Shown here one piece after another: positions 9,626 through 51,707 of a DNA stretch of 64,000 bases. The notes beneath the pieces were generated by a model. The model saw only the letters and a program-made list of their open reading frames with translations, did not search any database and was not told where the DNA came from. Origin of the DNA: Escherichia phage BME3. How positions within the stretch are numbered: the first letter of the stretch is position 1; every line of letters begins with the position of its first letter. The position numbers were made by a program, and so were the translations under genes. The stretch lies in sequence record PP239276.1; one strand, written 5' to 3'.

Positions 9626-9710
9626 ATGGTAGCTAAGGTGAGACTCGAACTCACAATCCCTTGGGGCAATACGTTCTAAGCGTATCGTGTATACCATTCC
9701 ACCACTTAGC
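9626..9710 (-). tRNA. tRNA-Leu (anticodon UAG), type II
   Basis: 85 nt with long variable arm; anticodon arm ATACG/CTTAGAA/CGTAT; T-arm GTGAG/TTCGAGT/CTCAC. Confidence 0.6.
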
Positions 9711-9787
9711 CATAAAAATACACCACTGTAAGAAGCCTCAATGTGCTATTGACAGTTAACCAAGTCTACTCCTTGGATGGTGATATT

Positions 9788-9862
9788 TGGTGCAGAGAGA
9801 TGGTAACGATCCATCCTTTCTACCTTTTCAGGGTAGCACTAATCCGTCTCAGCTATCTCTGC
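9788..9862 (-). tRNA. tRNA-Phe (anticodon GAA)
   Basis: Acceptor GCAGAGA/TCTCTGC, anticodon arm CTACC/CTGAAAA/GGTAG; T-loop ATCGTTA is non-canonical. Confidence 0.5.
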
Positions 9863-9867
9863 AAATT

Positions 9868-9943
9868 TGGTCAGTGCGGCAGGACTCGAACCTGCGACCT
9901 GAAGCGTCCAAGGCTCCCACGCTACCAACTGCGCTACGCACTG
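9868..9943 (-). tRNA. tRNA-Pro (anticodon UGG)
   Basis: Perfect acceptor CAGTGCG/CGCACTG, D-arm GCGC..GCGT, anticodon arm GGAGC/CTTGGAC/GCTTC, T-arm GCAGG/TTCGAGT/CCTGC, CCA encoded. Confidence 0.7.
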
Positions 9944-9950
9944 TAAATCT

Positions 9951-10025
9951 TGGCTGGAGATCTAGGAATCGAACCTAGTCATCACGACTTCAAAGGCCGT
10001 TGCCTTCCCACTAGGCTAATCTCCA
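9951..10025 (-). tRNA. tRNA-Gln (anticodon UUG)
   Basis: Acceptor TGGAGAT/ATCTCCA, anticodon arm ACGGC/CTTTGAA/GTCGT, T-arm CTAGG/TTCGATT/CCTAG. Confidence 0.6.
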
Positions 10026-10124
10026 ATAAAACTAAAAATCACTTAAAAAGAACCGCTAGAGTTTGAAGGAGAAAACCATGAGCGAAAAGAGAAATTTTCT
10101 CTAGCGATTCCATTTAAATAATCT

Positions 10125-10199
10125 TGGAGCGAGTAACAGGACTTGAACCTGCACCTGGAGGGTGGAAACCTCATATGCTACCATTAACACTATACCCGC
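10125..10199 (-). tRNA. tRNA-Gly (anticodon UCC)
   Basis: Acceptor GCGGGTA/TACTCGC, anticodon loop TTTCCAC, T-arm GCAGG/TTCAAGT/CCTGT. Confidence 0.55.
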
Positions 10200-10254
10200 T
10201 TAACAATATTACTCTAACATATTATTAGCCCCTTTGTCAAGAGGCTTTTGATAT

Positions 10255-10584
10255 TTATTTTAAAATAGTAGATGAACCACGTCTGTTTAGATATGCAATA
10301 GTAAAGTCCAAATCACCTATTTCTTCAGGTTCCCACTGACCTTCTAAGCCATAACAAGAACAATGATATGCGTGTACTTCATAAAACAAAGATGTTTTCA
10401 TATCATAAAAATAAACGTGAGATTCACCTTCATAATATGCACAATCATAAGTGGCAGAAAGAATTACAATGTTATCCTTATCTAACTCTACTTCATAATA
10501 TCTTTCAACATCTTCAATATGATCAAAACCATCGAAAACATTGATATTAAAATATTTCTCTAACTCTTTTTCTGTCACATACAC
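10255..10584 (-). CDS. hypothetical protein embedded in tRNA cluster
   Basis: 109-aa ORF with GTG start preceded by AAGGAG RBS; Cys/Tyr/His-rich; no recognisable motif. Confidence 0.5.
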   Translation of the reverse strand: MYVTEKELEKYFNINVFDGFDHIEDVERYYEVELDKDNIVILSATYDCAYYEGESHVYFYDMKTSLFYEVHAYHCSCYGLEGQWEPEEIGDLDFTIAYLNRRGSSTILK

Positions 10585-10601
10585 TCCTTTAGAGTTAAAA
10601 T

Positions 10602-10676
10602 TGGTGCTCCCACAAGGACTCGAACCCTGATAAGTTGCTTACAAGGCAACCGTAATAGCCGTTATACGATAGGAGC
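10602..10676 (-). tRNA. tRNA-Thr (anticodon UGU)
   Basis: Acceptor GCTCCTA/TGGGAGC, anticodon arm GTTGC/CTTGTAA/GCAAC, T-arm CAGGG/TTCGAGT/CCTTG. Confidence 0.65.
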
Positions 10677-10682
10677 AATACT

Positions 10683-10759
10683 TGGACTCGACAGGATTCG
10701 ATACCTGCAATTCCAGAAGCCTCTTGGCGACTGGGGGTTTACCTTAACTCTACAAGTCC
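10683..10759 (-). tRNA. tRNA-like element (non-canonical: 8-nt T-loop, no clear anticodon arm)
   Basis: Acceptor GGACTTG/CGAGTCC and T-stem GCAGG/CCTGT enclose an 8-nt loop TATCGAAT; the interior forms a long hairpin (CCAGTCGCC-AAGA-GGCTTCTGG) rather than D/anticodon arms. Confidence 0.3.
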
Positions 10760-10766
10760 ATAATTC

Positions 10767-10851
10767 TGGCGATGGATCAAGGATTTGAACCTTGCTAGAA
10801 CTTTCGTTCACGGATTAACAGTCCGTCGCCCAACCACTAGGCCAATCCATC
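10767..10851 (-). tRNA. type II (long variable arm) tRNA with GUU (Asn) anticodon; Ser-like body
   Basis: 85 nt; acceptor GATGGAT/ATCCATC, discriminator G, 3-bp D-stem GCC/GGC, anticodon arm ACGGA/CTGTTAA/TCCGT, variable hairpin GAAC-GAAA-GTTC, canonical T-arm CAAGG/TTCAAAT/CCTTG. Confidence 0.5.
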
Positions 10852-10858
10852 TTTAATT

Positions 10859-10945
10859 TGGTGCAGGTAGTTGGACTCGAACCAACGAAGCCCAGAAGGG
10901 CAAGAGATTTACAGTCTCCAGCAATTGCCGCTATGCGATACCTAC
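10859..10945 (-). tRNA. tRNA-Tyr (anticodon GUA), type II
   Basis: 87 nt; acceptor GTAGGTA/TACCTGC, anticodon arm GGAGA/CTGTAAA/TCTCT, long variable arm, T-arm GTTGG/TTCGAGT/CCAAC. Confidence 0.6.
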
Positions 10946-10950
10946 GTGTT

Positions 10951-11026
10951 TGGTACATCGTGAAGGATTCGAACCTTCGACCTTGGAGTTAAAAGCCCCT
11001 TGCTCTACCAACTAAGCTAACGATGT
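10951..11026 (-). tRNA. tRNA-Lys (anticodon UUU)
   Basis: Perfect acceptor ACATCGT/ACGATGT, D-arm GCTT-AGTTGGTA-GAGC, anticodon loop CTTTTAA, T-arm GAAGG/TTCGAAT/CCTTC. Confidence 0.65.
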
Positions 11027-11150
11027 ATAAATTATCTTTAAAATAGCCAGTGTTTGCGGCACTTGACTATGGGATATCGGTAAGATGGTGGGGCCATCTG
11101 CCGAAAGTTTACTCTGTTAAAGTAAGATGACAAGCTACATTAAAGATAAC

Positions 11151-11236
11151 TTGGCGGTAGATGTAGGACTTGAACCTACACGCCGTTTCCGACGACAGTT
11201 TAGCAAACTGTTGTGGCTACCATTTCACCAATCTAC
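11151..11236 (-). tRNA. tRNA-Ser (anticodon GCU), type II
   Basis: 86 nt; acceptor GGTAGAT/ATCTACC, discriminator G, 3-bp D-stem GTG/CAC, anticodon arm ACAGT/TTGCTAA/ACTGT, long variable arm. Confidence 0.65.
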
Positions 11237-11245
11237 CGTTCTTAA

Positions 11246-11446
11246 TTATTCAAAACAACCGGAATCTTTTTGTTCTGCTTTTACCATACGAATATTTTTA
11301 CCATCTTCAGATTGTTGAAGATTAGAATACTCATAAATAACTTTATTATCTACAATCTTAACTCCGGTAACAACCTGTCCAATAGTTTTATAATTCATAA
11401 AGCTCCTAGTTGAATTTGGAGGAAGATAATGGAGTCGAACCATCAC
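11246..11446 (-). CDS. small hypothetical protein
   Basis: Track ORF overlaps tRNA-Ser(UGA) 3' end; AGGAG RBS before internal MNYKTIGQ suggests a ~50-aa product starting near 11398. Confidence 0.3.
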   Translation of the reverse strand: MMVRLHYLPPNSTRSFMNYKTIGQVVTGVKIVDNKVIYEYSNLQQSEDGKNIRMVKAEQKDSGCFE

Positions 11447-11506
11447 CGTATCGCTACAATGGGCCAGGGTTCAAACCTGGTTGCGCACCGCTGCGCCCTA
11501 CCTTCC
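11417..11506 (-). tRNA. tRNA-Ser (anticodon UGA), type II
   Basis: 90 nt; anticodon arm CCAGG/TTTGAAC/CCTGG, long variable arm, T-arm GATGG/TTCGACT/CCATT. Confidence 0.6.
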
Positions 11507-11569
11507 CGTTATCATACTTTAAATCTAACATAAAACTATGTTGCTTGTCAAGTAGTTTTTAAAACTTTT

Positions 11570-11651
11570 TGGCCGGGGTGACAGGATTCGAACCTGCATA
11601 CTCCAATTACTCGGTTAACGCCTGATTAGAAGTCAGGTGAGATACACCCCG
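11570..11651 (-). tRNA. tRNA-like element with Arg-type anticodon arm (UCU); D-arm not resolvable
   Basis: Acceptor CGGGGTG/CACCCCG and canonical T-arm; stem-loop CCTGA/CTTCTAA/TCAGG sits only 7 nt after the acceptor, followed by a 23-nt extra region. Confidence 0.35.
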
Positions 11652-11723
11652 TTTTCACAGTAACTATAACAAAAAACTAAGTAAATGTCAAGATATTTTT
11701 TACTAAATTGCTATTTAAATTGA

Positions 11724-11829
11724 AGCCTAGTTATGGAATCGAACCATATTTCGTATTTAGTTAGACAAAGCGATCTAACATATTTTTCAGGCTTTGATGG
11801 CCTCGGAATTACCAAATACCCTACCAGGC
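11724..11829 (-). tRNA. tRNA-like element (over-long, 8-nt internal loop; possible pseudo-tRNA or structured RNA)
   Basis: Canonical T-arm TATGG/TTCGATT/CCATA and 7-bp acceptor pairing spanning about 106 nt; interior contains hairpin GTTAGA-TCGCTTTG-TCTAAC instead of a canonical anticodon arm. Confidence 0.25.
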
Positions 11830-11831
11830 GT

Positions 11832-11917
11832 TGGTGCAAGTGGAGGGATTCGAACCCTCAATCATTTAAGCGTTGCGTTTTAAGCACAATGTGTATCACC
11901 AATTCCACCACACTTGC
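11832..11917 (-). tRNA. tRNA-Leu (anticodon UAA), type II
   Basis: 86 nt; perfect acceptor GCAAGTG/CACTTGC, anticodon arm TTGTG/CTTAAAA/CGCAA, long variable arm, T-arm GAGGG/TTCGAAT/CCCTC. Confidence 0.6.
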
Positions 11918-11948
11918 ATATAGGAGATGCATAGCACCTCCTTTTAAA

Positions 11949-12024
11949 TGGTGGTTCCCCAGGGTTACAATCCCTGCCCTCGACACTTATGAGGTGTGCG
12001 CTCTCGTCAGTGAGCTATGGAACC
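11949..12024 (-). tRNA. tRNA with CAU anticodon (third CAU species; Met/fMet/Ile2)
   Basis: Acceptor GGTTCCA/GGGAACC, D-arm GCTC..GAGC, anticodon arm CACAC/CTCATAA/GTGTC; T-loop ATTGTAA is non-canonical. Confidence 0.5.
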
Positions 12025-12031
12025 TTGAATA

Positions 12032-12298
12032 TTAAGCATACTGGGTCATTTCACCAGCTTCGCGTTTCTCCAGAAGAACTGTAATCAAAGCAATAGCTGC
12101 TTCTTCTTCGTGAGGAAGCCCCATTTCATCCAGAAGAGCAAGGAAGTCAATTACCAAACTTTCTGTTTTAAGGCTCACGCTACCATTTTCGTTTTCAGTA
12201 AGAACTGATTCAGGTTCAAAAATAAAGATTGCTCCACCTTTATTATCAATCAATACGTGCTTCTCAATCAATTCTTTACCATAAGTACGTTCTGTCAT
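12032..12298 (-). CDS. hypothetical protein
   Basis: 88-aa ORF with AAAGGAG RBS; acidic C-terminal half; no motif recognised. Confidence 0.5.
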   Translation of the reverse strand: MTERTYGKELIEKHVLIDNKGGAIFIFEPESVLTENENGSVSLKTESLVIDFLALLDEMGLPHEEEAAIALITVLLEKREAGEMTQYA

Positions 12299-12478
12299 AG
12301 TTTTCTCCTTTTTGTTTAACTTGTGCTTATCTTAGCAAATAACTAGCTATGTTGTCAACTAGTTTTTACAATATTTTTTCTTGATCTGTAACCTAGTGTA
12401 TAACCACATACAAAAGATACAATAGCAATAAAAACAGATAAGCCAAAAATAATTTCTGTAGACATACTGTTTCCTTAA

Positions 12479-12700
12479 TTATGTGAAATCTAATTCCTCC
12501 TCTGGTGCTGTGTAATTTAGAAGAAGATCAGTTACACTTTGATGTTGATAAACCCTTTCGGGACTGTCATCGAATGCCAAACTTGTACAAATCGAGCATA
12601 GATCCGACTCTTGAATATTACCATTCCTGTCTCTACGGGAGTGATTAGTCAAGTGTCTGTTACAGGCTCGGCAACGAAAATAAAAATTATGTTGTTTCAT
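12479..12700 (-). CDS. small zinc-ribbon protein with NrdB-like C-terminal tail
   Basis: 73 aa; CRAC...CSIC (four Cys); C-terminus ...APEEELDFT shares EEELDF with the C-terminus of the nrdB product in this window. Confidence 0.5.
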   Translation of the reverse strand: MKQHNFYFRCRACNRHLTNHSRRDRNGNIQESDLCSICTSLAFDDSPERVYQHQSVTDLLLNYTAPEEELDFT

Positions 12701-12771
12701 AAATCCTTCGTGAAGCCCATCCAGGGCAGTTATAGGCTCTCCTTACCTTAATCTTATCACGAAGTTTTTAT

Positions 12772-14505
12772 TTAGTCAACCTGGATGGTTCCCATAGTAC
12801 GAAGAACCTCTACGTCAACACGGTTGCGGATATCAGTGAATGTTTCATCACGTCCTTCTACTTGTGGTGTAATAACCTTACCATCTTTGAAGATAACTTG
12901 TAACTCATTGTCTTCATCCTGGATATCTTTAAAAGAAAGATTATCTACAAGAGAAAGATTACCATTAGTATCCTTAACAACCTTAATAAAACCTTTTGCA
13001 GAGCGTTTACCAGGATCAGTTTTAGGCTCCTTACTTACCAAAATTTCGTGTTCACCGATGATGCTACCTGTTGCTTTAACAGCAAAGCCAAAAGTATCTC
13101 GTGTATTGAACTGATAAGTATAACTACCAACACCAAATACAATATTGGAAGCAGCAAAGCCTTTCTTCTTCAGTCGGCGTAAGATTTCGTGTTCTCGTTC
13201 AACAGTAATAGAATCACCATAAATCATACCGATGTGCTGATCAAGAACCTTGTAGCCTTTTCGGTTGATAGTACCGCCAAACACTTCCCAAAGGATTTGA
13301 ATAGAACCTACTGCTTCACAATAAGGAATCTCATAAGTTTCATCAATACAATCAGCAACGCTACAATCCTGAAGAACATTGTAATACTTATTAACATCAG
13401 CCAAATGAACTACTTCAGTGGCTGTCGCAATACCATTATTTAAAAGGTCTTCATAGTTATCAAAAGATTCAACATTGTATCCTGCAACAACTTTAACCGG
13501 ATCTCCTGAATCTGGACGAATAACAAGACGACCATTTCGTGACATAATGGACTCTTTCAATTCTACCAGAATGCGAGTCAAGACAGCCCAGTAATCATAA
13601 GAATCTGCTACATATGAACAAAAACCTTCTGGAACAATTTCTTCAATATAGCGGCGAAGAAACTCTTTCTCTGCTACATAACGAAGCCCATCAACATCAT
13701 CTTTAAGATGTGGGAAATGTTTCTTCAGATCTTCAACAATAGCTCCAATGTTAGTCGTTGCTACTGAATGTTCTGTTGCCGGAATAGAACCTGCAACAAA
13801 TTGATCATAATCAATACCATAATAATCATGCACAGTTTCAATAGCCAGAATATTATCTGTTCCTGTGAAAGATGCCAAATGAGCGATACCACTCTTATAA
13901 CCATCTTCGATATTGCTTAAGCCACGTAGACTAAAATCATGACACTGGAAATTAACGTGATCAATGTTATCACACGTTGCCATCGCATACGCCATAGCGA
14001 TACGCTTATACTGAAAAGCTGCTGTGGCATTAGTCATTGTCTTCCAAGTTTCATCTGACAAGAGTGTTTCAACATAGTTAGTTAACCAAAAGAATTTTTC
14101 TAAAGTGTTATGCACAGTAAACACAGGAACACCAATAGGGCACAAAACACCTTCTGGCAGAGATCGAACTTCTAGCGGAAGATAACCTAAATCGTGCAAT
14201 TCTCCCCAACATTCAGCAGAAGGAGCAGAAGCACCTAATGCATTTTTAGACATACGATAAAATTTATTTACTGCTGCACTACGAGACATTTTAAAGAAGC
14301 TGTCCCACATAGTTACAAGAGCATCAGTAACTGCTCGACGAATACCTAAAACAATAACACCACGTGCTTCACGATCTGCATAATGTGCAAAGTTTTTATC
14401 ATTACGAGGAGTTAAATTAGAGAAAATGAGTTTTGTATTTTGGTTGTACATCTGCTTGTGACCAGGTTTATACCAATCAGTAGCAAAAGGTGCAAAAATA
14501 TTCAT
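12772..14505 (-). CDS. nadV: nicotinamide phosphoribosyltransferase-like protein (NAMPT family; NARP1 Namat-like)
   Basis: 577 aa; NAMPT hallmarks TDWYK, PEGVLCPIGVPVFTVHNT..FWLTNYVET, HDFSLRG, IRPDSGDP. Confidence 0.85.
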   Translation of the reverse strand: MNIFAPFATDWYKPGHKQMYNQNTKLIFSNLTPRNDKNFAHYADREARGVIVLGIRRAVTDALVTMWDSFFKMSRSAAVNKFYRMSKNALGASAPSAECWGELHDLGYLPLEVRSLPEGVLCPIGVPVFTVHNTLEKFFWLTNYVETLLSDETWKTMTNATAAFQYKRIAMAYAMATCDNIDHVNFQCHDFSLRGLSNIEDGYKSGIAHLASFTGTDNILAIETVHDYYGIDYDQFVAGSIPATEHSVATTNIGAIVEDLKKHFPHLKDDVDGLRYVAEKEFLRRYIEEIVPEGFCSYVADSYDYWAVLTRILVELKESIMSRNGRLVIRPDSGDPVKVVAGYNVESFDNYEDLLNNGIATATEVVHLADVNKYYNVLQDCSVADCIDETYEIPYCEAVGSIQILWEVFGGTINRKGYKVLDQHIGMIYGDSITVEREHEILRRLKKKGFAASNIVFGVGSYTYQFNTRDTFGFAVKATGSIIGEHEILVSKEPKTDPGKRSAKGFIKVVKDTNGNLSLVDNLSFKDIQDEDNELQVIFKDGKVITPQVEGRDETFTDIRNRVDVEVLRTMGTIQVD

Positions 14506-14576
14506 AGTTATGTCTCCTTGTTTGTTAGTGTGGGAGTATCTTACTAAGCATACTCCCTATTGTCAACACTTATTAT

Positions 14577-15470
14577 TTAAAAATTCCACACGTATGGAGA
14601 TACAATTTGTTGTTGCAAATCTGACTGATTCTTAACAAGAACACCGGAATCTTCTTGGATGTTATCTTCCCACACATTAAGAGAATGAATGCAGTCAAAG
14701 TGCTCACTTAACTCTTTAAGACCTTTAGAAAAGATACCGTGTGTAACATATAGCTCAATCTTACCTGCGTTACGAGCACGTAGCACTTTAGCCAATTCGA
14801 TAAAAGTTCTACCACCATCACAGATATCATCTACGATCATCAGGTTACGCTTATTGAAATCCTGTACAGAAATGTCTGTACGAACAATAGCACCTGTTGC
14901 AGTATCTCTAACCTTCTCTGCACAGAACACATCTAAAGACATTTTCTTAGATAATTTAAATATTTTCTTAAGAGCACCACCATCAGGACTAACAAGAGCA
15001 AAATTCTCCATACGTAACTTCCACTTTAAAGTTTCGTAAGCAATCTCTTCTTGAGGTATTACATAGAGTCTGTCAAACACTGCTGGAGTAACATCGCTAT
15101 GTGGATCAGCAACGATAACACGTGAGAAATTTAATGAATTAATTATAGAAGCAAATGCTTTAACTCCGAATGCTTCCCCAGGCTCACACACTCTGTCTTG
15201 TCGTGCATACGGTACATACAGCATGAGTAAATCAACACAATATGGTTTATGATATAGCATATTGTCCAATGCATTCTTAGTCATAACCAAAGTCATCAAG
15301 TCTTTAGCAGATCTTACTTCTAAAGAGAGTAAGATTCTGTCTGTAGCATGATTGAAACCTGATAGATTCGTATCTAGTTGAACATGTTGTTCTCCACCAG
15401 AGAATGTAAAGACTTTAACGTCTACATCAGTAACATAACAGTCAACACCATGTAGAATACTAACTTTCAT
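14577..15470 (-). CDS. prs: ribose-phosphate pyrophosphokinase-like protein (PRPP synthetase family; NARP1 Adps-like)
   Basis: 297 aa; Prs motifs PYARQDR, LVSPDGGA, MIVDDICDGGRT; directly upstream of the NAMPT-like gene on the same strand. Confidence 0.85.
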   Translation of the reverse strand: MKVSILHGVDCYVTDVDVKVFTFSGGEQHVQLDTNLSGFNHATDRILLSLEVRSAKDLMTLVMTKNALDNMLYHKPYCVDLLMLYVPYARQDRVCEPGEAFGVKAFASIINSLNFSRVIVADPHSDVTPAVFDRLYVIPQEEIAYETLKWKLRMENFALVSPDGGALKKIFKLSKKMSLDVFCAEKVRDTATGAIVRTDISVQDFNKRNLMIVDDICDGGRTFIELAKVLRARNAGKIELYVTHGIFSKGLKELSEHFDCIHSLNVWEDNIQEDSGVLVKNQSDLQQQIVSPYVWNF

Positions 15471-15880
15471 TATTTATCTCCTTAGTTGAGTTAGGACTTT
15501 ATGTTCTCTACTCTACATACAGATAGATCTAAAGTCAATAGATATTTATTATTTAATTAATAATAAAATTAATAAAGAATCTATTGTTAGTATAGAGCAT
15601 GTATGTTAGTATTATAGACATAACATAGTGCTATATGTAGACTACTCAGTTGTCTGTTAGATCATGTATCACAAGATTAGATAACACCCCCCTCGCTGCG
15701 CTCGGCGTTTTTCGGGGGTTAGGGTAGCATACTTTTTTGAGTTTGTCAACACCTTTTTAGATTATTTTTAAATACAACCTAAACCTCCTAAAAACGATTG
15801 TAACGAGTTTTACTGTGAGGTAAGGTGATTGCATATCTTAGAGGCTATTAGCTCGTTACAGAGCTATACAGGAGGGAATA

Positions 15881-16249
15881 ATGAGGGTCACACGTTACGT
15901 TAGAAGTGAAACAATAGATGGAGGCATAATGTATGCTTTCTACGATGATAAAACTTTTTGTTCTGCGTTCTATGAAGAAGACTTGTCTACGGAATGGCAA
16001 CAAATCATCTTCTTACTTGACATTTTGAAAAGAAGAGATAACTTTGAAGGTATTGAGTGGACAGCGGGAAGCAAAGTTATCGTTGCAGGTTTAAGCAAAC
16101 ATGAATTGCTTGACTTAGACTGTAAACTTTGTAATTATCAATTCTCAAAACGTTTACCATTAGAAAGACAGTTAGGAGTTGAGATTCATGTTGACTTGGG
16201 CGATGGAGTATCCTATACTCTCAACAATCATAGTGCTGACATTAATTAG
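15881..16249 (+). CDS. hypothetical early protein
   Basis: 122-aa ORF, first gene of plus-strand block after the ~410-bp divergent intergenic region; GGAGGG RBS. Confidence 0.5.
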   Translation: MRVTRYVRSETIDGGIMYAFYDDKTFCSAFYEEDLSTEWQQIIFLLDILKRRDNFEGIEWTAGSKVIVAGLSKHELLDLDCKLCNYQFSKRLPLERQLGVEIHVDLGDGVSYTLNNHSADIN

Positions 16250-17313: not shown

Positions 17314-17504
17314 TGTTTCTTATTTATTCAGGTAAAGCCAAATACATGCAAGGTGTAAAGCGTGTAGAAGTAGTAGATACTGTAACTATAGGAAAATCCT
17401 TTATTCTTTATTTGTTTTATATCAATGGAGAAAGATTTGCTGTTTCTAAGAAGTTGGTAGATAATGGTAAAACTTGGAAAGAAGAGAAACAGGAAGGGGG
17501 TTGA
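17313..17504 (+). CDS. hypothetical protein
   Basis: 63-aa ORF. Confidence 0.4.
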   Translation: MFLIYSGKAKYMQGVKRVEVVDTVTIGKSFILYLFYINGERFAVSKKLVDNGKTWKEEKQEGG

Positions 17505-17848
17505 TAGTGGCTAAAATTCTTTGGTTAGACGATTTAAGAGATCCTAAAGATTATGGTTATGAGGATGCCATTTGGTTAAAATCTTTTGGGGATTGGTTAT
17601 CTTTTGTTTCAGATGAAGATAATTTCAATAATATCTCAGAGATACACTTCGATAATGATCTTGGAGAAGATCAGGAAGGATATCATGCATTCTTAGACGT
17701 AGAATGTATGTTGTATGCGGGTGAATGGGATGCTCTTAAAACTATCTATGTCCATACATCAAACCCTTCTGCTGCTGGTAAATATATGTTAGCTAAGGAA
17801 AATTTTATTTCATCTTATGGTGTTGAAATTAAGCGTGTTAACTATTAA
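17474..17848 (+). CDS. hypothetical protein
   Basis: 124-aa track ORF; likely GTG start near 17507 (MAKILWLDD...). Confidence 0.45.
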   Translation: MERRETGRGLIVAKILWLDDLRDPKDYGYEDAIWLKSFGDWLSFVSDEDNFNNISEIHFDNDLGEDQEGYHAFLDVECMLYAGEWDALKTIYVHTSNPSAAGKYMLAKENFISSYGVEIKRVNY

Positions 17849-18003
17849 GTAGGTATTATGCATTACTCAGTTTGGTCAGAGCAAGAAGAGGATGAAGGGC
17901 GTTTTATCTATAAAGAGGAAGAAAACTGTAACGATACGAGTAATGATCTTTTACTTCCTGATTACAGTTTTTTCGCTGATAGATTAAAAGAGTACGGAGA
18001 AAA

Positions 18004-18366
18004 TTGATGTGCGCTACTAATCAACATGATATTTGTTACCAACCTCTTACTTGGCTTGGTGAGGATCACTATGCTCAACGTGTTATAGTCTGCGCTGCGA
18101 ATAAGTATATTCTCAATAATGGCGAAGAGTTAATTATTCCTTGTGTTAGGCATGCAAATCCTGTACTATCTGCACAACTTAATGTTTTAAAAGATGCAGG
18201 ATTGATTGATAAACTGTTTTGCTTACCTGATAATCAAGGGTTTATTGATCAGTATTATAACTGGTGGAGTCGCAAAGATGCTTATATCATTGCAGATAAC
18301 GCCAAACAAATTAACTACGAAAGAAATGGTCACAACAGTGAACTATTCAGCGAGGGATTATACTAA
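18004..18366 (+). CDS. hypothetical protein
   Basis: 120-aa ORF directly upstream of the phosphoesterase gene. Confidence 0.5.
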   Translation: MMCATNQHDICYQPLTWLGEDHYAQRVIVCAANKYILNNGEELIIPCVRHANPVLSAQLNVLKDAGLIDKLFCLPDNQGFIDQYYNWWSRKDAYIIADNAKQINYERNGHNSELFSEGLY

Positions 18367-18917
18367 TGTTTATTACAAGTGATTTGCATTTTATGCACAA
18401 ACGTATCCGAGAGTTTGCTCCTGAATATCGCCCGTGGGAAGATATGGAGCATATGACAGAAGCACTGATCGAAGCATGGAATAAATGTGCCACAACACCA
18501 GGAGTAAAGATGTACCATCTTGGGGACTTCTGTTTCGGGACTGAAGAAGATACCCGTAAGATTGCTTCCCGTCTCCAAGGAGATATTACTTACTGTGTTG
18601 GGAACCATGATTATAGTAAACACAGAAAAGTGCTTGCAGAGTATGGAGAAGTGGTTTATTATGACGAAGTGAAATATCAGAAGCTGTTCTTCGTCTTAAG
18701 TCATTACCCTATGGCTGCCTGGAATAAACAAGGGCATGGATCAATCATGCTACACGGACACTCTCACGGATCATTCCCTGACCATTTGTATGGGAAGATG
18801 TTGGATGTTGGTTGGGATGCACACGGGAAAATCTTGCATTTTGACGAAATCATCTCTATTATGGATAAGCGTGATATTGTTGTTGTAGACCATCATAAGA
18901 TAATCAAAGGAGATTAA
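18366..18917 (+). CDS. calcineurin-like metallophosphoesterase (candidate RNA 2',3'-cyclic phosphodiesterase / 3'-phosphatase)
   Basis: 183 aa; metallophosphatase motifs DLHF, GDFCFG, GNHD, HGHSH. Confidence 0.75.
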   Translation: MFITSDLHFMHKRIREFAPEYRPWEDMEHMTEALIEAWNKCATTPGVKMYHLGDFCFGTEEDTRKIASRLQGDITYCVGNHDYSKHRKVLAEYGEVVYYDEVKYQKLFFVLSHYPMAAWNKQGHGSIMLHGHSHGSFPDHLYGKMLDVGWDAHGKILHFDEIISIMDKRDIVVVDHHKIIKGD

Positions 18918-18918
18918 G

Positions 18919-19851
18919 GTGGCTAAGTTCAATTGTGATGACCTGATTGCAAAAGGTTTAGTGCATAAAAAAGAAGTTAAATCTGGAGAGTATGCTGGTC
19001 TTGCTGTACTTAAATACAAAAACAATGTATTCTGGGATAACTTGTGGAACGTTGACAAACGACTTTTAGATTGTCGTGGGTTGGTTGTTGATTCAGAAGA
19101 CAATGTTGTTATTTGGCCTTTTACTAAAATCTTTAATCGTTTTGAAAATGGTACAGATCTTCCAGCAGACGAAATTGTAGATGCTGTCCGTAAAGTAAAC
19201 GGTTTTATGGCATCTGTAGGTGTGTACAAAGGGAAACTTGTTGTATCAACAACAGGGAGCCTAGAATCAGATTTCGCAATTATGGCAAAGAACCGTATTG
19301 TTTCCGAGTGTGACGACATAGAGTATTTCATTAAGTGGACAGAAAGTGCAAAAGCAACTTTTCTTTTTGAAATCTGTGATCCTTCTGATCCACATATTGT
19401 CGAAGAAGAACCAGGCGCATACTTAATTGGAGCAAGAATTCAAAATCTTGATGGGACAAGTTTCATGTTACCTGAAGGTGTTCTTGATGGGATTGCATCT
19501 GTTACAAAATTTAAACGTCCTGAAGTTTATCCGATGATTAAATTTTCAGATGTTGTTGAAATGTCTAAACATTGTAAACACGAAGGGTTTGTAGTTCGTG
19601 AAACAAACTACCCGTTTAACTTACTGTTAAAGATTAAGTCACCATACTATCTTGCTAAAAAATTCCTTATGCGTGGTGGCAATAAGAAGTGGGATATGAT
19701 TTGGGACAACCCAAACAATGCTAAACAAATTGTTGACGAAGAATATTATACTTTGCTAGAATGGCTTCGAAACAACTTTACGAAGGCTCAATGGGCTGCT
19801 CTCGATCCACAAGAGAGACGTAAAGAAATAGAAAACTTCTTTGGAGGCTAA
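18919..19851 (+). CDS. RNA ligase-like nucleotidyltransferase
   Basis: 310 aa; covalent nucleotidyltransferase motif I KVNGF, motif IV EGFVVR, motif V LKIKS; too short for an OB-fold DNA ligase, and a separate DNA ligase is present. Confidence 0.6.
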   Translation: MAKFNCDDLIAKGLVHKKEVKSGEYAGLAVLKYKNNVFWDNLWNVDKRLLDCRGLVVDSEDNVVIWPFTKIFNRFENGTDLPADEIVDAVRKVNGFMASVGVYKGKLVVSTTGSLESDFAIMAKNRIVSECDDIEYFIKWTESAKATFLFEICDPSDPHIVEEEPGAYLIGARIQNLDGTSFMLPEGVLDGIASVTKFKRPEVYPMIKFSDVVEMSKHCKHEGFVVRETNYPFNLLLKIKSPYYLAKKFLMRGGNKKWDMIWDNPNNAKQIVDEEYYTLLEWLRNNFTKAQWAALDPQERRKEIENFFGG

Positions 19852-20256
19852 ATGAAACAACTTATCATTTTACGTGGTGTTTCAGGCGCAGGTAAATCTA
19901 CAGTAGCAGAAATTATCTCTGAAAATCATTGGCCTATTTGTGAGGCAGATCAATACCACTACACTGAAGATGGTGTGTATGAGTGGAAACAAGAGAATAT
20001 CCATAAAGCACACCAATGGTGTCGTGTCAAAGTACAAAAATATATGCAGTATGGTGTTGAAAAGATTATTGTCTCTAACACTTCAACCACAGAGAAAGAA
20101 CTTAAACCTTATTTAACTCTTGCTGAAGAGTTTGGTTATCAAGTTATCTCTTTAGTAGTTGAAAATAGGCACGGTAACGACTCAATTCATGAGGTTCCAC
20201 AACATATTCGTGATCAGCAAGAGAAACGTCTTCGCAGTTCACTTAAACTACAATAA
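19852..20256 (+). CDS. polynucleotide 5'-kinase-like P-loop kinase
   Basis: 134 aa; Walker A GVSGAGKST at N-terminus, overall layout resembling the kinase domain of T4 Pnk; start 1 nt after the ligase-like gene stop. Confidence 0.65.
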   Translation: MKQLIILRGVSGAGKSTVAEIISENHWPICEADQYHYTEDGVYEWKQENIHKAHQWCRVKVQKYMQYGVEKIIVSNTSTTEKELKPYLTLAEEFGYQVISLVVENRHGNDSIHEVPQHIRDQQEKRLRSSLKLQ

Positions 20257-49631: not shown

Positions 49632-50165
49632 ATGGGTTTTGATGATATGTTATTATATGAGGAGGCTTGTGTGAAAGAAGCTATGGCTTTACCAGTTTTA
49701 TCTATTGATATTACAACAGTAGACACTTTTTCAGATTGTGAAACGTGTGGATCGTATTCGTCTATTGTACATGAAGTCAGTGGTGATTTAGGCACTTACG
49801 AAGATGGAGATTATGCAAGTTGTTTAGGTGATAATCTAGATGGTGAAGTGGTGAATGTTGCAAACTGGATTGCTTCTAAGTTAAAAGAAAGAAATCGTCC
49901 GTTCCCTAATCTTCTTACACCAGAAGCTATGCTTAAAGCTGAACAAGAGATGTATGATTATGGTTATAAAGTAGATTATGACTATAATGATCCTAAATAT
50001 AAAAAATTGAGTGACAAGTATTGGGAACTAGCTAACGCTTATGATAAATACTACTCTACAGAAAACATTGTTAAATTGTTTTTAGATTTTGGAGTAGAAA
50101 TTAATTGGGATTTCGAAGAGGAAGAGCGTTACGACGCATCTTCTTGGGAGGACGAGGGTGAATGA
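49632..50165 (+). CDS. hypothetical acidic protein
   Basis: 177-aa ORF with GGAGG RBS. Confidence 0.5.
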   Translation: MGFDDMLLYEEACVKEAMALPVLSIDITTVDTFSDCETCGSYSSIVHEVSGDLGTYEDGDYASCLGDNLDGEVVNVANWIASKLKERNRPFPNLLTPEAMLKAEQEMYDYGYKVDYDYNDPKYKKLSDKYWELANAYDKYYSTENIVKLFLDFGVEINWDFEEEERYDASSWEDEGE

Positions 50166-50902
50166 TAGAACGAAAACCCTTACCAGATAGAGATTACTTG
50201 TTATCAAGGTTTAGTGTGGAGAATGGTCGTCTTGTTTGGAAACCTAAACCTTCTACAACAAAAGAGAACAAAAGGTGGAATAGCAGATACGCAGGGAAGA
50301 TTGCAGGGACTATTGATAAAGTTGGTTACTCTCATGTCAAAATAGATGGTATTGTATACTTGGAGCACAGAATTTGTTTTAAAATGTATCATAATTACTG
50401 TCCAGATGTTATAGACCATGACGACGGCAATAAACTTAATAATGCGGAAAGTAATTTGTTGGATAGTAACTATTTATTAAATAATAACAATAGACACGTG
50501 GATGGGTTAGAAGGTATTTATGAAAAGGATGGTGTTTTTCTTTGGGTTATAAACTACAACCAAGAAACTTTCTCTGTTTCAGGTTTCAAAACTAAAGAGG
50601 AAGCTATTGTAGCTAGAGCTTTAGCAAAACAAGAAATTTTGAAAGGATCTTATATCAAAAAAGAAAAGAAGCGTATAGATAACACTTCAGGATTAAGCTG
50701 TGTGTTTGTGGCGACAAGAGAGAGAACATTCTTTTTCAAGTTTGTGTTTGACAAGACCACGTATTGCAAATATGGTTTCAACGATCCAGAGAGATGTGCT
50801 ATAGCTCTGGAGAAGCTAAGATTAAAGGTGATGAAAGAAAAATATAAACCTGCAAATAAAAGCATTTGCGAAAAATATAAGGAGGAGATTTATGCCGCGT
50901 AG
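50162..50902 (+). CDS. HNH homing endonuclease (HNH plus AP2-like DNA-binding region)
   Basis: 246 aa; HVKIDGIVYLEHRICF...IDHDDGNKLNNAESNL HNH core; C-terminal basic region. Confidence 0.6.
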   Translation: MIERKPLPDRDYLLSRFSVENGRLVWKPKPSTTKENKRWNSRYAGKIAGTIDKVGYSHVKIDGIVYLEHRICFKMYHNYCPDVIDHDDGNKLNNAESNLLDSNYLLNNNNRHVDGLEGIYEKDGVFLWVINYNQETFSVSGFKTKEEAIVARALAKQEILKGSYIKKEKKRIDNTSGLSCVFVATRERTFFFKFVFDKTTYCKYGFNDPERCAIALEKLRLKVMKEKYKPANKSICEKYKEEIYAA

Positions 50903-51707
50903 AGTCATATTCATAACTGGCGCAGGACTATCTGTGGATAGCGGTATCCCAGCTTTTAGAACAGATACTTCTTCAGGGGAGGCGTTATGGTCTTCTTATG
51001 ATCTTTCTGAGGTCTGTAATATTTTCAACTTCCGTGACGGTTATCAGCAAGAACAAGGTGTTCTTGATGCTATGGGTGGTTTAGATGCGGAAGGATATAA
51101 CCTCTACCGTAAAACTCACGACTTTTACAATAAACGTCGCGTGGAATTAGAGAAAGTTGACCCGAATCCAGCACATCTTCAGATTGGAGAATGGTTCAAA
51201 AAATATGGCCCAGAACGAATTATTAACATTACTACTAACGTAGATGACCTCCTTGAACGAGCAGGAGTAGATAGGGAAGAAGTGCTACATGTGCACGGTT
51301 TTCTTCCTGAAATTACTTTTCAAAGAAAAGCTGGACAACCTACAATTGTAAAAGATGTTGGTTATCAAGCCATAGATGTAGATGACTACCATTATGTAAA
51401 ACCTAATGTAATTTTCTTTGGGGAAGCTGCTCCACTTTACACAGATATGTATCATATTTTTGATACACTGACGGCTCAAGATTTGGTTGTAGTAGTAGGA
51501 TGTTCAAACCAAGTTATCAATTTTAATTGGGAATTATTCCCTGCACTTAATATGGGTACAAAAATGATCGTTGTTAACCCAGGAATTAATTACGAAGAAA
51601 CTCTTCTTTACGAAGATAGAGGAGTCTTTGTTTATAGAGAAAAGGCAGCAGATGCTTTTAGCAATCCTGCTTTCATAAAAATGATAGAAGATCATTTGAC
51701 TAAATAA
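50892..51707 (+). CDS. Sir2-family (sirtuin-like) protein lacking zinc-binding module
   Basis: 271 aa; ITGAGLSVDSGIPAFR, TTNVDDLLERAG, HVHG, FFGE, VVVGCS sirtuin core motifs; no CxxC...CxxC zinc module. Confidence 0.7.
   Translation: MPRRVIFITGAGLSVDSGIPAFRTDTSSGEALWSSYDLSEVCNIFNFRDGYQQEQGVLDAMGGLDAEGYNLYRKTHDFYNKRRVELEKVDPNPAHLQIGEWFKKYGPERIINITTNVDDLLERAGVDREEVLHVHGFLPEITFQRKAGQPTIVKDVGYQAIDVDDYHYVKPNVIFFGEAAPLYTDMYHIFDTLTAQDLVVVVGCSNQVINFNWELFPALNMGTKMIVVNPGINYEETLLYEDRGVFVYREKAADAFSNPAFIKMIEDHLTK

Follow-up and report, generated by a model that had tools for sequence, protein, structure and literature searches.

A probable two-gene NARP1 operon in a phi92-like coliphage

Escherichia phage BME3 carries, side by side, genes for a PRPP synthetase (Prs)-like and a NAMPT-like protein. 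Public records of phi92-like phages still name such genes "ribose-phosphate pyrophosphokinase" and "nicotinamide phosphoribosyltransferase", and the question raised by the locus is whether the encoded enzymes make PRPP and NMN, or ADP-ribose pyrophosphate (ADPR-PP) and NAD+ as in the NARP1 pathway. An earlier note on the window (the whole stretch of 64,000 nucleotides analysed here, from record PP239276.1) had put the pair forward as a candidate NARP1-type (Adps/Namat) module, without deciding between PRPP and ADPR-PP as the product.

NARP1 is a major counter-defence of phages, present in about 4% of those sequenced, which allows survival of Thoeris, DSR1/2, SIR2-HerA, SEFIR and other NAD+-depleting systems. 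In the mechanism proposed for the window pair, a defence of this kind (SIR2-HerA, DSR1/2, type I Thoeris, SEFIR or similar) would split NAD+ into ADP-ribose and nicotinamide. Adps would then use ATP to pyrophosphorylate ADP-ribose at its free ribose C1'', yielding ADPR-PP, and Namat would exchange this pyrophosphate for nicotinamide; NAD+ would thus be regenerated directly, with no need for the NMN salvage enzymes of the host. The two reactions (ADPR + ATP to ADPR-PP, and ADPR-PP + nicotinamide to NAD+) have been demonstrated only with the enzymes of SPbetaL1, Paenibacillus foliorum and DyoEdafos and, in vivo, with Bas63; rescue of phage replication and of NAD+ against NAD+-depleting defence has been shown for the Bas63, Fado and SPbetaL1 operons. 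It is from homologs, namely Bas63 in vivo and SPbetaL1 in vitro, that we infer the substrates and the anti-defence phenotype of the window pair; its gene order, clade membership, catalytic residues and adenine-clamp helix motif were observed directly.

Both genes lie on the minus strand. The first gene of the operon, adps, encodes the Prs-like, predicted ADP-ribose pyrophosphate synthetase (14577..15470, 297 aa) and is followed by namat, encoding the NAMPT-like, predicted nicotinamide ADP-ribose transferase (12772..14505, 577 aa), with a spacer of 71 nt between them (14506..14576); the co-directional arrangement described in the earlier note is as claimed. Each gene has an AAGGAG ribosome-binding site on the minus strand, 8-9 nt 5' of its ATG (15478-15483 for adps and, within the spacer, 14514-14519 for namat). 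Putative sigma-70-like promoters, which are consensus matches only, precede both genes on the same strand: TTGACT-17-TAGAGT at 15538..15510, 5' of adps, and TTGACA-17-TAAGAT at 14566..14538, inside the spacer. The candidate promoter and ribosome-binding site of adps (15478..15538) sit in a divergent intergenic region (15471-15880). A likeness upstream of both genes, TTGACA...GTATGCT, was considered as a common promoter motif and is taken as coincidence, since the spacing is 7 nt in one case and 11 nt in the other. No intrinsic terminator was found 3' of namat on the minus strand, and the 71-nt spacer contains no ORF, so that adps and namat are not separated by a third gene.

The window derives from a phi92-like phage (Justusliebigvirus), matched by 55 phage records at 95-99% nucleotide identity. 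Adps is 99.3% identical to phi92 gp107 and Namat is 98.8% identical to phi92 gp108, with 2 and 7 residue differences, respectively, none of functional note. The pairs of phi92 and of the BASEL phages PaulScherrer (MZ501100) and JohannJBalmer (MZ501084) have the same lengths (297/577 aa), order and flanks as the window pair, with a tRNA array downstream and a divergent early region upstream. Both genes are intact in the 55 related genomes, and comparison with phi92 gives 13 synonymous and 2 nonsynonymous codons in adps, and 28 and 7 in namat, a substitution pattern that indicates purifying selection. NARP1 in this lineage is already known, having been catalogued in the paper that defined it (Osterman et al.). 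The Prs-like proteins of phi92 and PaulScherrer are listed there in Table S1 (Prs/Adps homologs) with "Namat within 10 genes: Yes", and their NAMPT-like proteins in Table S2 (Namat) as "Adps-associated"; the JohannJBalmer pair, like that of PaulScherrer, is also found in Tables S1 and S2.

The Prs-like protein matches TIGR01251 (E 1.6e-34) and phrog_619 (E 5.5e-91), and the NAMPT-like protein matches Pfam NAPRTase (E 2.6e-37), NCBIfam PRK09198 (462 bits) and phrog_448 (E 3e-188); on these scores both family assignments are judged to be far beyond chance. The window Adps is 35% identical to Bas63 Adps, 35% to SPbetaL1 Adps and 28% to E. coli Prs. In a neighbour-joining tree of a 20-sequence alignment it groups with 13 Namat-linked proteins, including the Bas63 and SPbetaL1 Adps, apart from six canonical Prs (bootstrap 84%). 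With HMMs built without the window protein, it scores 269.7 bits on the Adps model as against 85.8 bits on the Prs model; canonical Prs reach 140 bits at most on the Adps model. TIGR01251, a broad subfamily model, is the sole NCBIfam Prs model whose cut-off the protein reaches, and that narrowly (119.3 bits, cut-off 113); PRK01259 (99.5 vs 297) and PRK00934 (99 vs 296) are missed, and the rest lie far below their cut-offs. Osterman et al. report that Namat is adjacent in 97% of Adps-clade proteins and rare beside bacterial prs genes. On the tree and the profile scores, the Prs-like protein of the window falls within the Adps clade associated with Namat and outside canonical Prs.

In canonical Prs, the DTGGT-type loop binds the ribose and 5-phosphate of ribose-5-phosphate, and the KRR loop is the catalytic loop. 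The window Adps has neither element of this signature: its loop DDICDGGRT (aa 214-222; 14805..14831, minus strand) takes the place of E. coli Prs DDMIDTGGT in the alignment, and EKVRDTATG that of DKRRPRAN. Adps-clade proteins in the alignment have DGG[RAGM]T or S[FY]GGT where E. coli Prs has DTGGT, and inspection by eye of five actinobacterial Prs from Table S1 showed DDMIDTGGT/DTAGT in four. Lys186, within AEKVRD (14913..14915, minus strand), is by alignment the equivalent of K162 of SPbetaL1 Adps, where the K162A mutation impaired NAD+ production (Osterman et al.).

The motifs from which the earlier note had recognised the two families are all in place, at aa 87 (PYARQDR) and 214 (DDICDGGRT) of Adps, and at aa 9 (TDWYK), 189 (HDFSLRG) and 329 (IRPDSGDP) of Namat. 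The top solved-structure match of Namat is the SPbetaL1 Namat (9W5X/9W5W, E 5e-118); mammalian NAMPT is matched with E 3e-50. Sequence identity is 39% to Bas63 Namat and 39% to SPbetaL1 Namat. In the alignment, none of the catalytic or NAD+-contacting residues seen in the crystal structure of SPbetaL1 Namat is replaced: D10, Y12, F191, R194, D217, H246, R330, D332, G430 and D431 match the nicotinamide/NAD+ contacts of 9W5W. The Namat core (nicotinamide-stacking Phe/Tyr, Asp215, the catalytic His, Arg306 and Asp308) is represented by Y12, F191, D217, H246, R330 and D332.

The adenine-clamp motif of Namat also points to this family. The selectivity-clamp helix (SCH), GSYTYQFNTRD (aa 460-470; 13096..13128, minus strand), is aromatic at the third and seventh positions of the motif and fits the published consensus found only in Namat, GS-X-phi-X-phi-X-phi-TRD (PMC12774641). 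The motif is absent from Xanthomonas (Xcc) Nampt (GGALLQKVDRD), from a Nmnat-associated phage Nampt (GGGMATADMDRD) and from PDB 9KE8/9KEO, the third-best structural match, whose GAQTYQRNTRD is not Namat-like and served only as a sequence contrast. Taken together, the HMM scores, K186, the DDICDGGRT loop and the SCH motif favour Adps/Namat over canonical Prs/NadV, the comparison to which the earlier note had pointed, and the product is, as far as sequence can settle it, supported as ADPR-PP.

The selectivity-clamp loop (SCL) is less regular. By alignment it corresponds to NDKNFAHYADREARG (aa 35-49; 14359..14403, minus strand), and exceeds the loops of Bas63 and SPbetaL1 by 4 aa and 6 aa, respectively. 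Under the published rule, adenine is stacked either by an Arg at loop position 3 or by the residue after a Lys/Tyr. In the window Namat, K37 aligns with SPbetaL1 R40, where the rule would place it, and is followed by N38, at the position of Bas63 W43, and then by F39; the loop departs from the rule, with Asn rather than an aromatic or stacking residue after K37 as well as in its length, and the identity of the adenine-stacking residue is uncertain from the alignment. Relative to SPbetaL1 Namat, the window protein also contains two insertions, of 30 aa (aa 253-282; 13660..13749, minus strand) and of 56 aa (aa 343-398, after IRPDSGDPVKVVAG; 13312..13479, minus strand). At the first site the insertion of Bas63 Namat is shorter, and at the second, where SPbetaL1 has none, it is longer; a Shigella phage Ag3 entry shows an insertion similar to the second. 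There is a slim chance that the long, Asn-bearing SCL and the insertions confer a different substrate range or regulation, in which case the pair would be a functional variant of NARP1 instead of a simple ortholog. One example would be acceptance of modified ADPR derivatives, with NADP+ rebuilt from 2'-phospho-ADPR; another would be gating of the active site by the insertions.

Weighing these observations, the window pair is highly likely to be a NARP1 operon in its two-gene core form, carried by a phi92-like coliphage. The published listing of phi92, the adps-first pair with its 71-nt spacer, the tree and HMM scores, K186, the conserved contacts with the SCH, the best PDB match and the apparent purifying selection argue for this reading; arguing against it are the 35% and 39% identity to characterised Adps and Namat, the off-rule SCL and the narrow pass of TIGR01251. 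That narrow pass, like the GenBank, PHROG and NCBIfam names, would agree with ordinary nucleotide/NAD salvage, in which a true PRPP synthetase and a NadV-type nicotinamide phosphoribosyltransferase would lead through PRPP to NMN, host NadR or PncC would complete NAD+, and the aim would be precursors for replication and not counter-defence. Namat homologs do keep PRPP-to-NMN activity in vitro, and because this holds for SPbetaL1 Namat some canonical chemistry is possible in the window pair. However, the position of the Prs-like protein in the Adps clade and outside the Prs clade, the replacement of DTGGT loop residues in DGGRT and the Namat adenine-clamp motif make salvage as the function very unlikely.

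The same in vitro activity would also allow a dual use, in which the pair would make NAD+ from ADPR under defence and, in undefended cells, Namat would make NMN from host PRPP, combining counter-defence with a general NAD+ booster. The fully conserved catalytic core of the window Namat is compatible with this, but in a published assay NAD+ alone was detected when PRPP and ADPR-PP were mixed, and ADPR-PP has been reported in vivo solely when a defence system is present; we regard dual use as highly improbable. The pair could also be a decayed, inactive remnant of a NARP1 operon, given that related phages do contain deletion chimeras of the two genes (seen in the Shigella phage Ag3 entry and in phrog_12872). 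Against this, both ORFs of the window are full length with all catalytic residues present, and the genes, intact across the 55 genomes, show synonymous changes in strong excess, which leaves the idea a negligible probability.

As a probable NARP1 operon, the pair can be compared with its characterised relatives. Bas63 (Escherichia phage JohannRWettstein, MZ501086), whose NARP1 (genes 79-80) was validated in vivo by operon deletion, belongs to a different phage group (Felixounavirus, as against Justusliebigvirus) and also places adps ahead of namat, with a short spacer between them. Its Adps shares the DDICDGGRT loop and the catalytic-loop signature K-V-R-[DN]-x-x-T-G, and its Namat shares the Lys-type SCL, the GSYTYQ[FY]xTRD helix and the location of both insertions. 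The two differ in the SCL, with N38-F39 in the longer window loop and W43-F44 in Bas63, and in the insertions, the first being about 13 aa longer and the second about 30 aa shorter in the window Namat. The biochemically characterised pair of Bacillus phage SPbetaL1 (genes 190-191; Adps WIT26982, Namat WIT26983) is likewise adps-first, and has in common with the window pair the nicotinamide/NAD+ contacts, the catalytic His, R306 (R330 in the window Namat), the SCH motif and K162 of Adps. In contrast, its Namat is 491 aa long and lacks both insertions, its SCL stacks through Arg40 where the window Namat has K37, and its Adps has DDLSSFGGT in place of DDICDGGRT. Canonical Prs (E. coli b1207) with NadV/Nampt, and the Nampt and Nmnat of NARP2 (KVP40), have the same folds as the window pair and share its catalytic chemistry (pyrophosphoryl transfer of the phosphoribosyltransferase type, and nicotinamide attachment); one distinction is the aromatic adenine clamp of the window Namat, as against GGALLQK-type or GGGMATAD-type sequences in canonical Nampt and NARP2. 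NARP2 combines a Nmnat partner with a clamp-less Nampt. Here the clamp motif is present, the phi92 protein is "Adps-associated" in Table S2, and the annotated neighbours of the pair in phi92 and Nernie include no Nmnat.

Some NARP1 loci carry further genes around the same Adps/Namat core, namely NARP1-AP (Adps-Adpp-Namat, with a Macro-domain ADPR-1''-phosphatase) and the RyDEP-containing loci, with a gene for an RyR-domain glycosidase. No Macro or RyR Pfam domain was found in the flanking ORFs at 12479..12700 (73 aa) and 12032..12298 (88 aa), nor does either domain appear in the locus annotation of the relatives phi92 and Nernie. Given the lack of a Macro-domain (NARP1-AP) or RyR-domain accessory gene at the locus, a two-gene core pathway is predicted, without the aRES-countering and cADPR-degrading extensions of those loci. 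The upstream ORF at 15881..16249 (122 aa) belongs, in a scan of PHROGs only, to phrog_14390, of unknown function; a further small ORF of 36 aa lies downstream at 12355..12465. An extended operon with conserved accessory genes was rejected: the 73-, 36- and 88-aa downstream ORFs and the 122-aa upstream ORF are common to phi92 and have no counterpart in the Bas63 and SPbetaL1 NARP1 loci, and there is no Macro or RyR domain among the Pfam-scanned ORFs.

The window pair leaves the understanding of the pathway unchanged, and its practical value lies in a correct annotation for phi92-like phages. Among the papers searched, no anti-defence test of a phi92-like phage was found. A phage with this pair should resist ADPR-producing NADase defences and, since there is no Macro-domain phosphatase at the locus, is predicted to stay sensitive to aRES-type defence.

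Elsewhere in the window, the ORF at 50892..51707 agrees with its earlier description as a zinc-less Sir2-like protein: having only two cysteines, C42 and C204, it contains no Cys4 zinc ribbon, and it matches Pfam SIR2 with E 2.2e-20.

The Prs-like gene, adps (14577..15470, minus strand; 297 aa), and the NAMPT-like gene, namat (12772..14505, minus strand; 577 aa), are co-directional neighbours separated by a 71-nt spacer. Both ORFs are listed at exactly the coordinates reported in the earlier note, and all five motifs quoted there are present: PYARQDR and DDICDGGRT at residues 87 and 214 of the adps product, and TDWYK, HDFSLRG and IRPDSGDP at residues 9, 189 and 329 of the namat product. In both genes AAGGAG lies 8-9 nt 5' of the ATG. 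The family assignments are unambiguous, with Pribosyltran and Pribosyl_synth domains, TIGR01251 and phrog_619 for the first product and Pfam NAPRTase, NCBIfam PRK09198 and phrog_448 for the second. The spacer contains a sigma-70 match (14538-14566, minus strand; TTGACA-17-TAAGAT, 10/12 of consensus), from which namat could have its own promoter.

By their database names the two genes would constitute ordinary Prs plus NadV salvage, the main alternative to NARP1, the phage pathway that makes NAD+ from ADP-ribose (ADPR) and nicotinamide; the same annotation has been found to be wrong for the NARP1 pairs of phages Bas63 and SPbetaL1. A two-gene operon of this kind has been reported in four BASEL phages; without it Bas63 is sensitive to SIR2-HerA, and host PncC or NadR is not required for protection. 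The SPbetaL1 Prs-like enzyme converts ADPR and ATP to ADPR-PP, which the NAMPT-like enzyme combines with nicotinamide to give NAD+; the ribose-5-phosphate/ATP assay of the former gave no product (the main text says PRPP, the figure legend ribose-5-phosphate) (Osterman et al., bioRxiv 10.1101/2024.02.11.579819).

The window Adps shares 35% identity with Adps of Bas63, 35% with that of SPbetaL1 and 28% with E. coli Prs. A neighbour-joining tree of 14 Namat-linked proteins and six canonical Prs (from the Osterman et al. table and E. coli K-12) separates the two groups in 84% of 200 bootstraps and places the window protein among the Namat-linked phage proteins, nearest to those of PVP-SE1, Klebsiella 0507-KN2-1, Yersinia phiR1-37 and Ralstonia RP12. 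Against an HMM of 13 Adps-clade sequences that leaves the window protein out, this protein scores 269.7 bits, inside the members' range, versus at most 139.8 bits for canonical Prs; on a Prs HMM it scores 85.8 bits, versus 486-589 for Prs. Among NCBIfam models it narrowly clears only the broad TIGR01251, missing all specific Prs models widely. The earlier note had left open whether the enzyme is of the PRPP or the ADPR-PP type; the HMM scores, the tree and the active-site alignment argue for the latter. The ATP-site elements F-x-G-GE, PYARQDR and DPHS are kept, and K186 aligns with the catalytic lysine K162 of SPbetaL1 Adps; the K162A mutant of the latter is impaired (Osterman et al., bioRxiv 10.1101/2024.02.11.579819). 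The counterpart of the E. coli Prs loop DDMIDTGGT in the alignment is DDICDGGRT, a sequence identical in Bas63 Adps. In Prs the loop is the binding site for ribose and its 5-phosphate; the altered sequence may make space for the ADP part of ADPR.

The best solved-structure matches of the window Namat are 9W5X and 9W5W (E ~5e-118), both SPbetaL1 Namat crystal structures, with mammalian NAMPT at ~3e-50. Namat is distinguished from Nampt by an adenine "selectivity clamp", built from two elements, a loop that varies (SCL) and a helix that is conserved (SCH), the latter with the motif GS-X-phi-X-phi-X-phi-TRD, whose aromatic residues (positions 3 and 7) stack on the NAD+ adenine (Lan et al., PMC12774641). 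Residues 460-470 of the window protein (GSYTYQFNTRD) match the SCH motif in full; the corresponding segment is GGALLQKVDRD in Xanthomonas Nampt, GAQTYQRNTRD in PDB 9KE8 and GGGMATADMDRD in a Nmnat-associated phage Nampt (CcrSC). All nicotinamide/NAD+ contact and catalytic residues of SPbetaL1 Namat are kept in the alignment (D10, Y12, F191, S192, R194, D217, A243, H246, R330, D332, G430, D431, T468, R469 and D470, window numbering). The SCL is the one feature that appears not to fit the Namat description neatly: K37 takes the place of SPbetaL1 R40 and Bas63 K42 in the alignment, but is followed by Asn and then Phe, where Bas63 has Trp next and the published rule expects an adenine-stacking residue, and the loop is 4-6 residues longer. 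The protein exceeds SPbetaL1 Namat by 86 aa, mainly through two insertions (residues 253-282 and 343-398). Insertions at both of these sites also occur in the Bas63 Namat (593 aa), which is functional in vivo; they are therefore a trait of the branch and not peculiar to this phage.

Salvage by Prs plus NadV conflicts with the clade tests, with the clamp motif and with the published finding that this annotation was wrong for Bas63 and SPbetaL1. The earlier reading of the locus as a NARP1-type module is borne out by the clade tests, the clamp motif and active-site conservation, and by the catalogued phi92 pair, as far as sequence comparison can tell. The mechanism is very probably three-step NAD+ rebuilding: host NADase effectors would release ADPR and nicotinamide, Adps would pyrophosphorylate ADPR using ATP, and Namat would exchange the pyrophosphate for nicotinamide, restoring NAD+. 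The sequence itself shows the gene arrangement, the clade membership and the conservation of active-site and clamp-helix residues; the substrates and phenotype of the window pair are predicted from homologs at 35-39% identity. Published supplementary tables include phi92 FR775895_00103/_00104, PaulScherrer MZ501100_00239/_00240 and JohannJBalmer MZ501084_00233, tagged "Namat within 10 genes: Yes" and "Adps-associated" (Osterman et al., bioRxiv 10.1101/2024.02.11.579819), and the sequences printed there are essentially those of the window. The lineage is therefore already catalogued as a NARP1 carrier, and the operon is not new: the pathway was published in 2024 and the Namat structures in 2026. 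Its value is limited to gene re-annotation and to predicting which defence systems the phage does or does not evade.

Full-length matches to 12500-15700 at 95-99% identity were found by Megablast in 55 phage records. They represent phi92 and further Justusliebigvirus/Stephanstirmvirinae coliphages, a few of them deposited as "Campylobacter" phages. The three best (MG065639, MG065645 and MG065656; unannotated, ~146 kb) are named 'Campylobacter phage' (host C. jejuni); because they are 98.8% identical to this coliphage-type sequence, the host label looks doubtful. Identity to the phi92 proteins is 99.3% for Adps (gp107) and 98.8% for Namat (gp108). Changes relative to phi92 (synonymous:nonsynonymous codons 13:2 in adps, 28:7 in namat) and Nernie are mostly synonymous, and both genes are therefore under purifying selection. 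The phi92 RefSeq record annotates a 151-nt 'hypothetical tRNA' inside gp108 (8264-8414, ~window 13760-13915); ARAGORN finds no tRNA in the window namat, which makes the feature a probable annotation artefact.

The window, phi92 and Nernie share one layout: structural and lysis genes are followed by a 16-tRNA array (9147-12024, minus strand; three with CAT anticodon) and then, likewise on the minus strand, by three small ORFs, namat and adps; beyond adps, a 410-nt divergent intergenic region leads to plus-strand early and replication genes. No intrinsic terminator was detected between namat with the three small ORFs and the tRNA array directly downstream, and the NARP1 genes and tRNAs may share transcripts.

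Extended versions of the NARP1 locus are reported in two recent preprints, one with a Macro-domain ADPR-1''-phosphatase (Adpp) that counters aRES defence, the other with a RyR-domain glycosidase (RyDEP) that turns cADPR signals into ADPR. The window locus is the two-gene core, without Adpp or RyDEP: the spacer contains no ORF, the downstream 73-aa and 88-aa ORFs have no Pfam match to Macro or RyR domains, the upstream 122-aa ORF (scanned against PHROGs only) matches a family of unknown function, and no Macro/RyR-type gene was seen in the annotations of phi92 and Nernie. By inference, the phage should still be vulnerable to aRES. No counterparts of the small flanking ORFs were found beside the Bas63 or SPbetaL1 operons. 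The 73-aa ORF immediately downstream of namat (12479-12700, minus strand; phrog_37033, unknown function), absent from both those loci, has a CxxC...CxxC spacing. In phi92 it goes unannotated, with a DNA-translated conservation of 98.6%.

Elsewhere in the window, a sirtuin-family protein (50892-51707, plus strand; Pfam SIR2 E 2e-20, phrog_2162) is closest, among solved structures, to deacylases of the CobB/Sir2-Af2 type and not to defence-type SIR2 NADases. GAGxS, TTNVDDL and HVHG are retained; as the protein has only two cysteines (C42 and C204), the Cys4 zinc ribbon is missing, in agreement with its earlier description as zinc-less. In this phage, a member of an NAD+-consuming enzyme family thus coexists with a pathway that rebuilds NAD+. 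The end of an ORF with a weak HNH_3 match (50162-50902, plus strand; E 1.7e-4) overlaps the start of the Sir2-like gene by 11 nt; the ORF may encode a homing endonuclease that inserted immediately upstream of this gene. Five consecutive plus-strand ORFs at 17474-20256, four with recognisable domains, resemble an RNA-repair cassette: a cREC_REC 'cyclic-phosphate processing receiver' domain protein (17474-17848), a phrog_839 ORF (18004-18366), a calcineurin-like phosphoesterase (18366-18917), an Rnl1-type RNA ligase (18919-19851) and a small AAA_33/PNK-like P-loop kinase (19852-20256). The cassette may be a countermeasure to anticodon-nuclease defences.

In phrog_12872 (547 positions, named NAMPT), profile positions 9-222 match Adps and 221-536 match Namat. 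The Shigella phage Ag3 entry FJ373894_00125 (Osterman et al. Table S1) is a single ORF in which an N-terminal Adps part, as far as DDICDGGRTFVE, is fused to Namat's C-terminal two-thirds; together these indicate that deletion chimeras of the operon circulate in related phages.
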